Positions 1,251-46,121 of a DNA stretch of 64,000 nucleotides are shown in pieces. The notes under the pieces were generated by a model that was given only the letters and a program-made list of their open reading frames with translations, was not told the origin of the DNA and did no database searches. Within the stretch, counting starts at the first letter, position 1. Each line of letters starts with the position of its first letter. The translations under genes were made by a program, and so were the position numbers. The DNA is taken from assembly GCF_030013205.1 (NCBI RefSeq), contig NZ_CP122648.1; one strand, written 5' to 3'. Source of the stretch: Escherichia coli (lineage in GTDB: Bacteria; Pseudomonadota; Gammaproteobacteria; Enterobacterales; Enterobacteriaceae).

Positions 1251-1277
1251 TTATCGGCCTGAATTGCGCAAAGTTTA
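1251..1277 (-). promoter_or_regulatory. sigma28 (FliA) class 3 promoter for fliD
   Basis: Minus-strand reading gives TAAA-N15-GCCGATAA, a perfect flagellar sigma28 consensus, about 45 nt upstream of the fliD ATG. Confidence 0.7.
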
Positions 1278-1369: not shown

Positions 1370-1396
1370 TAAAGGTTGTTTTACGACAGACGATAA
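1370..1396 (+). promoter_or_regulatory. sigma28 (FliA) class 3 promoter for fliC
   Basis: TAAA at 1370-1373, 15-nt spacer, CGATAA at 1391-1396 (gaCGATAA vs GCCGATAA consensus), about 75 nt upstream of fliC ATG. Confidence 0.7.
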
Positions 1397-1472: not shown

Positions 1473-3260
1473 ATGGCACAAGTCATTAATACCAACAGCC
1501 TCTCGCTGATCACTCAAAATAATATCAACAAGAACCAGTCTGCGCTGTCGAGTTCTATCGAGCGTCTGTCTTCTGGCTTGCGTATTAACAGCGCGAAGGA
1601 TGACGCCGCAGGTCAGGCGATTGCTAACCGTTTTACTTCTAACATTAAAGGCCTGACTCAGGCTGCACGTAACGCCAATGACGGTATTTCTGTTGCACAG
1701 ACCACTGAAGGCGCGCTGTCCGAAATCAACAACAACTTACAGCGTATCCGTGAACTGACGGTTCAGGCTTCTACCGGGACTAACTCTGATTCGGATCTGG
1801 ACTCCATTCAGGACGAAATCAAATCCCGTCTGGACGAAATTGACCGCGTATCCGGTCAAACCCAGTTCAACGGTGTGAACGTACTGGCGAAAGACGGTTC
1901 GATGAAAATTCAGGTTGGTGCGAACGACGGCCAGACTATCACGATTGATCTGAAGAAAATTGACTCAGATACGCTGGGTTTGAATGGTTTTAACGTGAAT
2001 GGTTCCGGTACGATAGCCAATAAAGCGGCGACCATTAGCGACCTGACAGCAGCGAAAATGGATGCTGCAACTAATACTATAACTACAACAAATAATGCGC
2101 TGACTGCATCAAAGGCGCTTGATCAACTGAAAGATGGTGACACTGTTACTATCAAAGCAGATGCTGCTCAAACTGCCACGGTTTATACATACAATGCATC
2201 AGCTGGTAACTTCTCATTCAGTAATGTATCGAATAATACTTCAACAAAAGCAGGTGATGTAGCAGCTAGCCTTCTCCCGCCGGCTGGGCAAACTGCTAGT
2301 GGTGTTTATAAAGCAGCAAGCGGTGAAGTGAACTTTGATGTTGATGCGAATGGTAAAATCACAATCGGAGGACAGGAAGCCTATTTAACTAGTGATGGTA
2401 ACTTAACTACAAACGATGCTGGTGGTGCTACTGCGGCTACGCTTGATGGTTTATTCAAGAAAGCTGGTGATGGTCAATCAATCGGGTTTAATAAGACTGC
2501 ATCAGTCACGATGGGGGGAACAACTTATAACTTTAAAACGGGTGCTGATGCTGGTGCTGCAACTGCTAACGCAGGGGTATCGTTCACTGATACAGCTAGC
2601 AAAGAAACCGTTTTAAATAAAGTGGCTACAGCTAAACAAGGCACAGCAGCTGCAGCTAACGGTGATACATCCGCAACAATTACCTATAAATCTGGCGTTC
2701 AGACGTATCAGGCGGTATTTGCCGCAGGTGACGGTACTGCTAGCGCAAAATATGCCGATAATGCTGACGTTTCTAATGCAACAGCAACATACACAGATGC
2801 TGATGGTGAAATGACTACAATTGGTTCATACACCACGAAGTATTCAATCGATGCTAACAACGGCAAGGTAACTGTTGATTCTGGAACTGGTACGGGTAAA
2901 TATGCGCCGAAAATAGGGGCTGAAGTATATGTTAGTGCTAATGGTACTTTAACAACAGATGCAACTAGCGAAGGCACAGTAACAAAAGATCCACTGAAAG
3001 CTCTGGATGAAGCTATCAGCTCCATCGACAAATTCCGTTCATCCCTAGGTGCTATCCAGAACCGTCTGGATTCCGCGGTCACCAACCTGAACAACACCAC
3101 TACCAACCTGTCTGAAGCGCAGTCCCGTATTCAGGACGCCGACTATGCGACCGAAGTGTCCAACATGTCGAAAGCGCAGATCATCCAGCAGGCCGGTAAC
3201 TCCGTGTTGGCAAAAGCTAACCAGGTACCGCAGCAGGTTCTGTCTCTGCTGCAGGGTTAA
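1473..3260 (+). CDS. fliC: flagellin FliC, 595 aa, conserved N/C termini with long variable central domain
   Basis: ORF translation begins MAQVINTNSLSLITQNNINKNQSALSSSIERLSSGLRINSAKDDAAGQAIANRF and ends ...SVLAKANQVPQQVLSLLQG, the conserved flagellin termini; central region is T/A/G/N-rich and unlike the K-12 allele. Confidence 0.96.
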   Translation: MAQVINTNSLSLITQNNINKNQSALSSSIERLSSGLRINSAKDDAAGQAIANRFTSNIKGLTQAARNANDGISVAQTTEGALSEINNNLQRIRELTVQASTGTNSDSDLDSIQDEIKSRLDEIDRVSGQTQFNGVNVLAKDGSMKIQVGANDGQTITIDLKKIDSDTLGLNGFNVNGSGTIANKAATISDLTAAKMDAATNTITTTNNALTASKALDQLKDGDTVTIKADAAQTATVYTYNASAGNFSFSNVSNNTSTKAGDVAASLLPPAGQTASGVYKAASGEVNFDVDANGKITIGGQEAYLTSDGNLTTNDAGGATAATLDGLFKKAGDGQSIGFNKTASVTMGGTTYNFKTGADAGAATANAGVSFTDTASKETVLNKVATAKQGTAAAANGDTSATITYKSGVQTYQAVFAAGDGTASAKYADNADVSNATATYTDADGEMTTIGSYTTKYSIDANNGKVTVDSGTGTGKYAPKIGAEVYVSANGTLTTDATSEGTVTKDPLKALDEAISSIDKFRSSLGAIQNRLDSAVTNLNNTTTNLSEAQSRIQDADYATEVSNMSKAQIIQQAGNSVLAKANQVPQQVLSLLQG

Positions 3261-3303
3261 TCGTTGTAACCTGATTAACTGAGACTGACGGCAACGCCAA
3301 ATT

Positions 3304-3403
3304 GCCTGATGCGCTGCGCTTATCAGGCCTACAAGTTGAATTGCAATTTATTGAATTTGCACATTTTTGTAGGCCAGATAAGGCGTTTACGCCGCATCCG
3401 GCA
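3304..3403. repeat. REP/BIME element (two inverted REP units) in fliC 3' region
   Basis: gcctgatgcgctgcgcttatcaggcctac ... gtaggccagataaggcgtttacgccgcatccggca, typical E. coli REP palindromes. Confidence 0.75.
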
Positions 3404-3433
3404 ACATAAAGCGCAATTTGTCAGCAACGTGCT

Positions 3434-3457
3434 TCCCCGCCACCGGCGGGGTTTTTT
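3434..3457 (+). terminator. rho-independent terminator downstream of fliC
   Basis: GC hairpin ccccgccaccggcgggg followed by tttttt. Confidence 0.7.
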
Positions 3458-3499
3458 CTGCATGGAATTTACCGGTAACCCCCAAATACCCCCTCATTT

Positions 3500-9549: not shown

Positions 9550-10007
9550 TTATTTTCCTCGTCATGTTGCAATGAAAATTTGCGGTGAAAAATGTTAAGG
9601 CGGCGGAGTATACCATAAGCTTTGCTAAAAATAGCAGTGGTTGTTTTTTGAGCGTGATATCGGCAGTGCTATAAAATACGTTAATATAATGACCAATAAA
9701 TATTTTTATCATGAATGTTTTTTGCCCGTATTGTTCGGGTTAATTAATGTTACATATTCAGCGGGCTGATTTTCATTTTTGCTGAATAAAGTCAATTTTT
9801 GTCACATTTCATCGTAGGGCTTACTGTGAAACGATCCCGGAAGCCGTTGGTGACGGGCGTGACCATAACTGTGGACAATCGAATTTACAAAAACGAGAGA
9901 AAAATCGAATACCCACCATTTTTAACGTTTCAAAGTTGCAATAAAAACCGCTAATATACGAATGACTAACTATCAGTAGCGTTATCCCTATTTCTGGAGA
10001 TATTCCT

Positions 10008-13249: not shown

Positions 13250-13325
<76 letters not shown>

Positions 13326-13379
13326 GTTTAAAAGACATCGGCGTCAAGCGGATGTCTGGCTGAAAGGCCTGAAGAATTT

Positions 13380-13453
13380 GGCGCGTTAACAAAGCGGTTA
13401 TGTAGCGGATTGCAAATCCGTCTAGTCCGGTTCGACTCCGGAACGCGCCTCCA
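13380..13453 (+). tRNA. cysT: tRNA-Cys (anticodon GCA)
   Basis: ggcgcgttaacaaagcggttatgtagcggattGCAaatccgtctagtccggttcgactccggaacgcgcctcca. Confidence 0.95.
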
Positions 13454-13465
13454 CTTTCTTCCCGA

Positions 13466-13552
13466 GCCCGGATGGTGGAATCGGTAGACACAAGGGATTT
13501 AAAATCCCTCGGCGTTCGCGCTGTGCGGGTTCAAGTCCCGCTCCGGGTACCA
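13466..13552 (+). tRNA. leuZ: tRNA-Leu (anticodon TAA), long variable arm
   Basis: gcccggatggtggaatcggtagacacaagggattTAAaatccctcggcgttcgcgctgtgcgggttcaagtcccgctccgggtacca. Confidence 0.95.
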
Positions 13553-25604: not shown

Positions 25605-26384
25605 AACCTGTTCCTTATTCTGTGAACTTCAGGTGACATTAAAGCTTTACTCCTAATGGAGAAACGACGCAATCCCAACTCAGTCAAACAGGTAAATATT
25701 AGTCTGATTATTAGTAAAGACAATTAATCAATCACTCTCGGTGATCATATGATTTCAACTGTAATTATAAGAAAATAATGTACTGATTCTCCATATTAAA
25801 CAAGTGGTTAATACATGTAAAACATTTTATTAACATTAAGTTGATTGTTGCCTTTCTTTGTATTTAATTAGTTTGTTGTGCGGTAAATGTCTGTTTAAAA
25901 ATAGCTTATCTGGTATTGCATTAAAGCAATTATTTATGGCAGATGATTATTTACGGTGAGTTATTTTAACTGTGCGCAACATCCCATTTCGATTATTCCT
26001 GTTTCATTTTTGCTTGCTAGAGTCGCGAAAAACTTTTTAACAGATTGAAATACACCCAAAACAAAAGTATGACTTATACATTTATGTTAAGTAATTGAGC
26101 GTTTTGTGTGATCTGTATCACACATTATTGAAAATCGCAGCCCCCCTCCGTTGTATGTGAGTGTAGTGACGAGTAAAGTTGCGTCGATTTAGGAAAAATC
26201 TTAGATAAGTGTAAAGAACCCCTTCTATTTGTGAGGACTTATTAAATCCAAAAAAGGGGCTCTGCCTGTTGCAGCTTATCGCAACTATTCTAATGCTAAT
26301 TATTTTTTACCGGGGCTTCCCGGCGACATCACGGGGTGCGGTGAGACCGCATAAAAATAAAGTTGGTTATTCTGGGTGGGAATA
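25605..26384 (+). promoter_or_regulatory. flhDC upstream regulatory region and long 5' leader (AT-rich), no IS element present
   Basis: 780-bp AT-rich intergenic segment preceding flhD; by established knowledge this region carries the class 1 promoter and multiple regulator and sRNA target sites; individual sites not resolved here. Confidence 0.5.
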
Positions 26385-26735
26385 ATGCATACCTCCGAGT
26401 TGCTGAAACACATTTATGACATCAACTTGTCATATTTACTACTTGCACAGCGTCTGATTGTTCAGGACAAAGCGTCCGCAATGTTTCGTCTCGGCATAAA
26501 TGAAGAAATGGCGACAACGTTAGCGGCACTGACTCTTCCGCAAATGGTTAAGCTGGCAGAAACCAATCAACTGGTTTGTCACTTTCGTTTTGACAGCCAC
26601 CAGACGATTACTCAGTTGACGCAAGATTCCCGCGTTGACGATCTCCAGCAAATTCATACCGGCATCATGCTCTCAACACGCTTGCTGAATGATGTTAATC
26701 AGCCTGAAGAAGCGCTGCGCAAGAAAAGGGCCTGA
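26385..26735 (+). CDS. flhD: flagellar master regulator subunit FlhD, 116 aa
   Basis: [70 protein letters not shown]...; alternative upstream ATG at 26376. Confidence 0.93.
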
Positions 26736-26737
26736 TC

Positions 26738-27316
26738 ATGAGTGAAAAAAGCATTGTTCAGGAAGCGCGGGATATTCAGCTGGCAATGGAATTGATCACC
26801 CTTGGCGCTCGTTTGCAGATGCTGGAAAGCGAAACACAGTTAAGTCGCGGACGCCTGATAAAACTCTATAAAGAACTGCGCGGAAGCCCACCGCCGAAAG
26901 GCATGCTGCCATTCTCAACCGACTGGTTTATGACCTGGGAACAAAACGTTCATGCTTCGATGTTCTGTAACGCATGGCAGTTTTTACTGAAAACCGGCTT
27001 GTGTAATGGCGTCGATGCGGTGATCAAAGCCTACCGTTTATACCTTGAACAGTGCCCGCAAGCAGAAGAAGGACCGCTGCTGGCATTAACCCGTGCCTGG
27101 ACATTGGTGCGGTTTGTTGAAAGTGGATTACTGCAACTTTCCAGCTGCAACTGCTGCGGCGGCAATTTTATTACCCACGCTCACCAGCCTGTTGGCAGCT
27201 TTGCCTGCAGCTTATGTCAGCCGCCATCCCGGGCAGTAAAAAGACGTAAACTTTCCCAGAATCCTGCCGATATTATCCCACAACTGCTGGATGAACAGAG
27301 AGTACAGGCTGTTTAA
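26738..27316 (+). CDS. flhC: flagellar master regulator subunit FlhC, 192 aa
   Basis: [70 protein letters not shown]... with C-terminal Cys cluster. Confidence 0.95.
27247..27273 (+). promoter_or_regulatory. sigma28 class 3 promoter of motA-motB-cheA-cheW, located inside the 3' end of flhC
   Basis: TAAA (27247-27250), 15-nt spacer, GCCGATAT (27266-27273); one mismatch to TAAA-N15-GCCGATAA. Confidence 0.6.
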
Positions 27317-27375
27317 CTGATACGGTGTGGCGCAACATTCCAGCAGCGGTAACGACGTACCGCTGCTTTTTTTTG
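27281..27375 (+). ncRNA. candidate 5'UTR-derived sRNA (MotR-like) ending at an intrinsic terminator upstream of motA
   Basis: Predicted sigma28 start about 8 nt after the -10, then hairpin agcagcggtaacgacgtaccgctgct plus T8 at 27342-27375, about 65 nt before the motA start; boundaries inferred, not measured. Confidence 0.35.
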
Positions 27376-27442
27376 CCCCAATCGCGCGTTAACGCCTGAC
27401 GACTGAACATCCTGTCATGGTCAACAGTGGAAGGATGATGTC

Positions 27443-28326
27443 GTGCTTATCTTATTAGGTTACCTGGTTGTTCTCGGTACAGTTTTCGGCGGTTATTTGA
27501 TGACCGGTGGAAGCCTTGGAGCACTCTATCAACCCGCTGAACTGGTGATTATTGCCGGTGCAGGGATTGGGTCATTTATCGTCGGCAATAATGGCAAAGC
27601 GATTAAAGGCACGCTGAAGGCGCTGCCGTTGCTGTTTCGTCGCTCCAAATACACCAAAGCAATGTATATGGATCTGCTGGCTCTGCTTTATCGGTTGATG
27701 GCGAAATCGCGGCAGATGGGGATGTTTTCGCTGGAACGTGATATTGAAAATCCCCGTGAGAGCGAGATCTTCGCCAGCTACCCACGCATCCTTGCGGATA
27801 GCGTCATGCTTGATTTTATCGTCGATTATCTGCGTCTGATTATCAGCGGTCACATGAACACCTTCGAAATCGAAGCCCTGATGGATGAAGAGATTGAGAC
27901 GCACGAAAGCGAAGCAGAAGTCCCGGCGAACAGTCTGGCGCTGGTCGGGGACTCACTTCCGGCGTTTGGTATTGTCGCGGCTGTGATGGGGGTCGTTCAC
28001 GCGTTAGGTTCAGCCGATCGTCCTGCCGCCGAGCTGGGGGCGCTTATCGCACATGCGATGGTGGGGACTTTCCTCGGTATTTTATTGGCTTACGGATTTA
28101 TTTCCCCATTAGCGAGTGTTTTACGTCAGAAAAGCGCCGAAACCAGCAAAATGATGCAGTGCGTCAAAGTCACACTGCTTTCTAATCTGAACGGTTACGC
28201 ACCGCCTATCGCCGTTGAGTTTGGTCGCAAAACGCTCTATTCCAGCGAACGTCCATCGTTTATTGAACTGGAAGAGCATGTGCGTGCGGTGAAAAATCCG
28301 CAACAACAGACGACAACCGAGGAAGC

Positions 28327-28330
<4 letters not shown>
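27443..28330 (+). CDS. motA: flagellar motor stator protein MotA, 295 aa
   Basis: [55 protein letters not shown]... Confidence 0.95.
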
Positions 28331-31802: not shown

Positions 31803-32510
31803 TTGTGCACAGAAAACCCCCAGCTAGGCTGGGGGTTCCGGAAAGCTTTCAGCTTTGAGCCAGTTATTAAAACCCCTTTTGATTTGTTAAAACACCTTGC
31901 GGTCTGGCAACTGCAAGTGTCAAACAAGAAATCAAAAGGGGGTCCCAATGGGGAACGAAAAGAGCTTAGCGCACACCCGATGGAACTGTAAATATCACAT
32001 AGTTTTTGCGCCAAAATACCGAAGACAAGTGTTCTACAGAGAGAAGCGTAGAGCAATAGGCAGTATTTTGAGAAAGCTGTGTGAGTGGAAAAGCGTACGG
32101 ATTCTTGAAGCTGAATGCTGTGCAGATCATATCCATATGCTTGTGGAGATCCCGCCCAAAATGAGCGTATCCGGCTTTATGGGATATCTGAAAGGGAAAA
32201 GCAGTCTGATGCTTTACGAGCAGTTTGGTGATTTGAAATTCAAATACAGGAACAGAGAGTTCTGGTGCAGAGGGTACTACGTCGATACGGTGGGTAAGAA
32301 CACGGCGAAGATACAGGATTACATAAAGCACCAGCTTGAAGAGGATAAAATGGGAGAGCAGTTATCGATTCCCTATCCGGGCAGCCCGTTTACGGGCCGT
32401 AAGTAACGAAGTTGGATGCAAATGTCAGATCGTGTGCGCCTGTTAGGGCGCGGCTGGTAAGAGAGCCTTATAGGCGCATTTGAAAAACCTCCGGCTATGC
32501 CGGAGGATAT
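31803..32510 (+). mobile_element. IS200-like insertion sequence (IS200/IS605 family), about 0.7 kb, boundaries approximate
   Basis: Single tnpA gene flanked by subterminal hairpins (cccccagc-tag-gctggggg at 31817-31835; cctccggc-tat-gccggagg at 32488-32506); extra DNA between the cheW terminator and the tar promoter; no terminal inverted repeats or target duplication seen, as expected for this family. Confidence 0.65.
31948..32406 (+). CDS. tnpA: IS200-type Y1 (HuH) transposase TnpA, 152 aa
   Basis: MGNEKSLAHTRWNCKYHIVFAPKYRRQVFY...CCADHIHMLVEIPPKMSVSGFMGYLKGKSS...RNREFWCRGYYVDTVGKN: HuH motif (HIH) and catalytic Tyr region typical of IS200 TnpA; ORF-track start at 31897 trimmed. Confidence 0.92.
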   Translation: MGNEKSLAHTRWNCKYHIVFAPKYRRQVFYREKRRAIGSILRKLCEWKSVRILEAECCADHIHMLVEIPPKMSVSGFMGYLKGKSSLMLYEQFGDLKFKYRNREFWCRGYYVDTVGKNTAKIQDYIKHQLEEDKMGEQLSIPYPGSPFTGRK

Positions 32511-32543
32511 TTATTTCAGTTTCGCGGCGGGTGGCATCAGCAA

Positions 32544-32570
32544 TAAAGTTTCCCCCTTCCTTGCCGATAA
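32544..32570 (+). promoter_or_regulatory. sigma28 class 3 promoter of tar-tap-cheRBYZ
   Basis: Perfect TAAA-N15-GCCGATAA (TAAA 32544-32547; GCCGATAA 32563-32570), about 30 nt upstream of tar ATG and downstream of the IS200-like element. Confidence 0.75.
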
Positions 32571-45285: not shown

Positions 45286-46041
<756 letters not shown>

Positions 46042-46087
46042 TTTTTACCGTTGCATCATGTCGCCCAATATGATGCTTGCTCGTACC

Positions 46088-46121
46088 AGGCCCCTGCAAT
46101 TTCAACAGGGGCCTTTTTTTA
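46088..46121 (+). terminator. rho-independent terminator after cutC
   Basis: aggcccctg-caatttcaa-caggggcct followed by ttttttt. Confidence 0.7.

Follow-up and report, generated by a model that had tools for sequence, protein, structure and literature searches.

We find that the flhDC-motAB junction of this Escherichia coli genome almost certainly carries motR, with a FliA (sigma28) start site at position 27280, a terminator hairpin and U8 tract ending at 27374 and readthrough of that terminator into motAB-cheAW mRNA. Positions refer to the window, by which we mean the whole 64,000-nt stretch of contig NZ_CP122648.1 (assembly GCF_030013205.1) that was analysed. The MotR locus is already known and not new: the RNA was published in 2023, and the reference genome annotates it.

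Identification of the MotR locus

The sequence and the list of its open reading frames identify the region as the junction of flhDC and motAB in E. coli. The flhC coding sequence occupies 26738-27316 of the plus strand, downstream of flhD (26376-26735), and motA, the first gene of motAB-cheAW, is placed on the same strand from a GTG start at 27443 to 28330 by both the ORF list and annotation. A 261-nt junction query found matches in 5,368 of 5,426 complete E. coli genomes, many of them 100% identical, with flhC and motA annotated beneath. Between these genes, MotR extends over 27280-27374 of the plus strand, a 95-nt stretch that begins at the start site and runs through the U-tract, and its nt 1-37 are the final 37 nt of flhC. 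The remaining motA leader (27375-27442, plus strand), as read from the sequence, is confined to the readthrough mRNA by which motA is reached. It contains a Shine-Dalgarno sequence, GGAAGGA, at 27429-27435 and a GGAAGGATGATGTCGTG block that is kept across Enterobacteriaceae. A minus-strand ORF of 45 aa (27273-27410) was rejected as unsupported, as it merely overlaps the hairpin. Further upstream, the uspC-flhD spacer measures 771 nt (25605-26375), indicating that the IS1 present upstream of flhD in MG1655 is absent in this strain. The antisense RNA AsflhD, annotated in MG1655, would fall on the minus strand at the 5' end of flhD.

A preceding sequence-only reading had taken this locus for a MotR-type sRNA derived from the motA 5' UTR and had pointed to the coordinates of MotR as a check, and the comparison bears it out. 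The RefSeq annotation of MG1655 places the ncRNA motR (b4828) at 1977208-1977302 on the minus strand, 95 nt long and overlapping the end of flhC. Window 27280-27374 corresponds to b4828 and is identical to it in 94 of 95 bases, the single substitution in the alignment being at 27328, T here and A in MG1655. The cloning primer SM001, 5'P-ACAACTGCTGGATGAACAGAGAGTAC (Melamed et al. 2023, PMC10578931), is identical to window 27280-27305 and sets +1 at 27280. The locus also shows the other features by which MotR is recognized, namely flhC/motA synteny, a sigma28 promoter in flhC, a transcript start at ACAACUG and a terminator giving a product of ~95 nt; FliA dependence was taken from published papers on K-12. 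The anticipated combination of a short, terminated transcript with readthrough motAB-cheAW mRNA likewise agrees with the architecture that Melamed et al. (2023, PMC10578931) described for K-12.

The gene is not listed as motR in the PGAP annotation of strains 100% identical at the junction. A local Rfam scan of 27247-27450 (E <= 10) gave no meaningful family, and a gathering-score scan of the whole window gave nothing over the MotR element; Rfam 15 holds no MotR family. One minus-strand hit overlapping the element, mir-283, was dismissed as chance (19.9 bits against a gathering score of 50, E = 2). Elsewhere in the window, gathering-score matches to MicL, STnc490, C0465 and three tRNAs were located at 45813-46120 (+), 31815-31938 (+), 32481-32554 (-) and 13250-13549 (+). 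The STnc490 match spans the end of cheW to the region upstream of tar, and the C0465 match is antisense and adjoins the tar promoter.

A sigma28 promoter within the flhC coding sequence

The promoter lies in the final 70 nt of flhC and reads TAAACTTT-N11-GCCGATAT (27247-27273, plus strand). Its -35 element (27247-27254) and -10 element (27266-27273) were found by pattern search, are separated by an 11-nt spacer and together show two mismatches to the sigma28 consensus TAAAGTTT-N11-GCCGATAA. This is the near-consensus promoter that the sequence-only reading had claimed for the last 70 nt of flhC, and it coincides with published data: the FliA ChIP-seq motif for (flhC)motAB-cheAW, TAAACTTTCCCAGAATCCTGCCGATATT, has the same sequence as window 27247-27274 (Fitzgerald et al. 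2014, PMC4183435). In the same study, motA expression fell from 302 in the wild type to 1 in a fliA deletion, where flhC expression was 107. A scan for sigma70 promoters found none close to the MotR element.

Allowing up to three mismatches, the sigma28 pattern occurs at five sites in the whole window compared with 0.52 expected from shuffles, a roughly 10-fold enrichment, and none of 100 shuffles reached five. Of the remaining four, three correspond to FliA promoters already published, those of fliD (1251-1277, minus strand), fliC (1370-1396, plus strand) and tar (32544-32570, plus strand). The fliD -10 element is GCCGATAA here and ACCGATAA in K-12, and the tar spacer carries one SNP. The fourth, TAACGTAT-N11-GCCGATAT at 9657-9683 on the minus strand, has three mismatches, lies near uvrY and yecU-yecF as judged by collinearity with MG1655, and may be due to chance. 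The fliC gene (1473-3260) encodes 595 aa compared with 498 aa in K-12, which indicates a different H antigen. The region of the FliX sRNA (fliC 3' UTR) should follow fliC at about 3261-3460, and an Rfam match to ES036 lies at 3325-3366 on the minus strand.

The MotR terminator

The same reading had described a hairpin with a T8 run about 70 nt downstream of the promoter and before motA. The hairpin itself stands, starting 69 nt past the -10 element and upstream of motA, while the end coordinate given for it, 27378, lies 4 nt beyond the U-tract and does not. The stem-loop AGCAGCGGUA-ACGACG-UACCGCUGCU (27342-27367, plus strand; MotR nt 63-88) has 10 pairs, six of them G-C, and a 6-nt loop. Together with its T8 it is the best terminator-like site in the region according to the terminator scan, and it is present in the minimum-energy as well as the centroid fold. 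The U8 tract, read from the sequence at 27367-27374 (plus strand), ends 68 nt before the motA GTG. Hfq-dependent sRNAs are characterized by a Rho-independent stem-loop followed by a tail of at least six U, and MotR has this arrangement with its U8, the expected Hfq-binding 3' tail.

Because the hairpin starts 26 nt past the flhC stop codon and is the sole terminator-like element between flhC and motA, we infer that it is the terminator of the flhDC operon too. The hairpin ending MotR must thus also end flhDC transcripts, a point that was absent from the sequence-only account. The published expression values in the fliA deletion, with flhC at 107 but motA at 1 (PMC4183435), agree with this inference, in that transcripts from upstream barely pass this terminator.

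Conservation across Enterobacterales

We fetched flhC loci from 80 Enterobacterales species. Measured from the end of the flhC stop codon, the -10 element ends 43 nt upstream in 79 of them. Third codon positions were compared among 71 gap-free flhC genes, each from a different species. Invariant third positions were found in 11 of the 21 codons from 167 to 187 (window 27235-27300) and in none of 160 elsewhere (Fisher p = 2.8e-12). These codons cover the promoter, including the -35 element, whose third codon positions are invariant in all 71 species, and MotR nt 2-19. This clustering indicates that the promoter and the first ~19 transcribed nucleotides are under nucleotide-level selection on top of the constraint on the FlhC protein. 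In Pectobacterium and Brenneria, where the MotR terminator is missing, the synonymous sites of MotR nt 2-19 are no less frozen, suggesting that another constraint acts on the MotR 5' end. Two sampled loci are irregular. In Enterobacter cloacae DSM 26481 (L069), flhC is matched only up to residue 173 and the promoter has a 10-nt spacer, which points to an indel or frameshift within the promoter region; in Enterobacter sp. Ag1 (L021), there is an early in-frame stop at the beginning of the flhC match. Both are possibly pseudogenes or assembly errors.

In those Enterobacteriaceae and Erwiniaceae that have it, the terminator, CAGCAGCG-loop-CGCUGC-U(6-9), is found at +83 to +88, with the exception of Pantoea sp. 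1.19, where it is at +106. A run of 6-9 T follows the stem in all 66 terminator-bearing species, the sample consisting of 66 distinct sequences. In the covariation alignment of 65 sequences covariation is confined to the upper three stem pairs, the lower seven being invariant and so giving no covariation evidence. The CAGCAGCG terminator is absent in the sampled Serratia (L071, L077, L081), Pectobacterium and Brenneria (L073-L079), all of which keep the sigma28 promoter in flhC. Pectobacterium and Brenneria display an unrelated hairpin of 11-16 bp, AAUCUAUCACUG...CAGUGAUAGAUU, with a poor U-tract at about +53 to +95 from the start site, and the Serratia leader forms GC-rich hairpins without a U-tract. 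This survey extends the published statement that MotR is conserved in certain Enterobacteriaceae (PMC10578931). Upstream of the terminator, the MotR body (nt 38-58) is poorly conserved between genera, and a G/U-rich GUGG motif is found at the seed position in most genera.

A natural polymorphism in the MotR seed

Locus, promoter, start site, terminator and length are the same as in K-12 MotR (b4828), and the one difference falls in the seed region. This region, GGUGUGG, comprises MotR nt 45-51 (27324-27330, plus strand). The M1 mutation, as defined by primer SM467, changes nt 46-48 from GUG to CAC (window 27325-27327). These three positions are intact here, and nt 49 (27328), directly 3' of them, is U instead of the A found in K-12. 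Searching with an exact 35-mer, we found U49 in 586 of 5,426 E. coli genomes, including O157:H7, and A49 in 2,973, with about 1,870 matching neither. As E. albertii, Citrobacter and Salmonella have GGUGUGG as well, U49 appears to be the ancestral and the A49 of K-12 the derived allele.

Duplex prediction places MotR on rpsJ at +140 to +155, in agreement with the published site at '~+150'. In this predicted duplex A49 pairs with U (-22.4 kcal/mol), whereas U49 creates a central U.U mismatch (-18.7 kcal/mol). The pairing site in rpsJ is identical in 5,412 of 5,426 genomes. For fliC, the predictions for the U49 and A49 alleles give differing, loop-rich sites and are uninformative.

MotR function in K-12 and related systems

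In K-12, MotR derives from the motA 5' UTR, and its promoter within the flhC coding sequence doubles as the motAB-cheAW promoter (Melamed et al. 2023, eLife 12:RP87151, PMC10578931). The same paper reports a MotR band of ~95 nt that is gone in a fliA deletion strain and enriched with Hfq co-immunoprecipitation, and attributes longer bands to readthrough of the MotR terminator. MotR has RIL-seq targets and was also detected by RIL-seq in EPEC and Salmonella; its pairing sites lie within the coding sequences of rpsJ, at ~+150, and of fliC. Synthesis of S10 is increased by MotR in a manner requiring both the S10 leader and Hfq's distal face, and flagella number as well as motAB-cheAW and tar operon mRNA levels go up with MotR in a nusB-dependent manner. 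The three-base M1 seed mutation abolishes the effects of MotR including the up-regulation of rpsJ-gfp and FLAG-S10, and a chromosomal motR-M1 moderately lowers flagella number. As a speculation, the authors propose that more transcripts pass the motR terminator as S10 rises, and S10-NusB is the sole published control of readthrough (PMC10578931).

Following the K-12 work, FliA RNA polymerase would initiate inside the coding region of flhC, with the A at 27280 as first nucleotide. Part of the transcripts would stop at the hairpin and U8 (27374), giving the 95-nt, Hfq-bound MotR, and the remaining transcripts would pass the terminator to yield motAB-cheAW mRNA. The GGUG(A/U)GG region, nt 45-51, would pair within the rpsJ and fliC coding sequences, and MotR would thereby be expected to raise S10 and, via a nusB-dependent route, flagella number.

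Like MotR, the RNAs FliX, FlgO and UhpU are sigma28-dependent, UTR-derived Hfq sRNAs of E. coli with a role in the flagellar regulon (PMC10578931). Their sources are 3' UTRs, from which they are released by processing or transcribed from an internal promoter, whereas premature termination in a 5' UTR produces MotR, which has its promoter in common with the downstream operon. Attenuator- or riboswitch-derived 5'-UTR sRNAs made by premature termination include rnTrpL of Sinorhizobium and SreA of Listeria. Here, as with MotR, a leader terminator gives a short trans-acting RNA and readthrough gives the mRNA. Unlike these systems, however, the MotR leader shows no evident ligand, leader peptide or riboswitch aptamer, in line with the lack of an Rfam match.

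Alternative readings of the junction and a candidate antiterminator

Could promoter-like and terminator-like motifs have met here by chance? Consensus scans do give false positives, as illustrated by 10 terminator-like sites where 3.1 were expected, but the sigma28 pattern is about 10-fold more frequent than in shuffles, 79 of 80 species have the promoter at the same position, and ChIP-seq and RNA-seq support the promoter (PMC4183435). Conservation and published data thus refute chance co-occurrence, to which we assign practically no weight. A second reading, that the hairpin only terminates flhDC, that the sigma28 promoter sits upstream of it through genome compactness and that the 95-nt RNA is a functionless by-product, could draw on the distance of 26 nt between flhC stop and hairpin, on the hairpin being the only terminator-like element before motA and on the poor conservation of nt 38-58. 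It is nevertheless very improbable: Hfq co-immunoprecipitation, RIL-seq targets, the M1-sensitive rpsJ-gfp and FLAG-S10 effects and the flagella phenotype of motR-M1 in K-12 all argue against it (PMC10578931), as does the persistence of the GUGG motif at the seed position in most genera. A further proposal would add a layer to the identification as MotR: MotR nt 5-12 may pair with nt 60-67 before the 3' arm of the terminator is made, forming a cis attenuator with an RNA antiterminator. We regard this as tentative and think it rather unlikely. The candidate 5' strand is CUGCUGGA (27284-27291, plus strand) and the candidate 3' strand UCCAGCAG (27339-27346, plus strand), the latter proposed from folds, shuffles and conservation and covering 5 nt of the terminator 5' arm and 3 nt upstream; the two 8-nt strands show perfect complementarity. 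Such pairing may delay the lower stem of the terminator, and part of the sigma28 transcripts would then reach motA. In flhDC mRNA, by comparison, nt 5-12 are translated as flhC codons 183-185, which may block the helix and leave termination near complete. The candidate switch would resemble trp-type attenuators in that, in silico, the terminator 5' arm has an alternative upstream partner, which would be blocked by translation proceeding to a nearby upstream stop codon. It would differ from them in that the 'leader peptide' is the C-terminus of a real protein, FlhC, and that it would tell two promoters apart instead of sensing an amino acid.

Several predictions are consistent with this candidate antiterminator. 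Its 8-bp helix is part of the minimum-energy fold of transcripts truncated at 67-78 nt, at -19.7 to -22.3 kcal/mol for the window allele and -17.3 to -19.9 kcal/mol for K-12, and in full-length MotR the terminator fold has an advantage of just 3.2-3.8 kcal/mol over the antiterminator fold. The predicted helix is abolished (-9.5 kcal/mol) by MotR*, a published mutation (UGC6-8 to GAG) said to give 'a more abundant derivative' (Melamed et al. 2023, PMC10578931); this abundance could instead stem from RNA stability. Among shuffles, 0.11% contain an uninterrupted 8-nt complement linking nt 1-20 to nt 56-70 (p about 0.001-0.006), while 12.5% of fold-based shuffles connect nt 1-20 with the arm region by at least eight pairs. 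At least seven antiterminator pairs are kept in 64 of 65 species, with 99.4% of alignment cells paired, and sequence invariance starts at nt 60, 3 nt outside the terminator stem. Both strands are, however, invariant in the alignment, so the helix shows no covariation and the covariation test is uninformative. The near-complete stop of upstream transcripts in the fliA deletion, compared with motA at 302 in the wild type, would also fit an antiterminator blocked by translation. Against it, Pectobacterium and Brenneria show the same freezing of 5' synonymous sites without having this terminator, and their non-homologous leader hairpin has no equivalent pairing with the 5' end. The helix also closes a 47-nt loop and competes with local hairpins, and readthrough has been ascribed by the authors to S10-NusB (PMC10578931). 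In the literature, of which our coverage was incomplete, we found no paper on an RNA antiterminator or on sharing of the flhDC terminator at this locus. The joint proposal, that nt 5-12 are a built-in antiterminator of the shared flhDC/motR terminator and that K-12 A49 is a derived allele perfecting the pairing with rpsJ, is somewhat less probable still.

Implications

The confirmation of MotR indicates that a first-stage reader was able to recognize a real sRNA locus from raw sequence. If the joint proposal were true, the terminator would be near-absolute for translated flhDC transcripts (class 1) and leaky for sigma28 transcripts that are not translated. This would account for the expression of motAB-cheAW (class 3) from a promoter upstream of a strong class 1 operon terminator. 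In that case, the U49 mismatch present in this window, in O157:H7 and in other genera would also mean that MotR control of S10 is maybe lineage-specific. Overall, the natural polymorphism at nt 49 provides a ready test of the link between MotR and S10 outside K-12.
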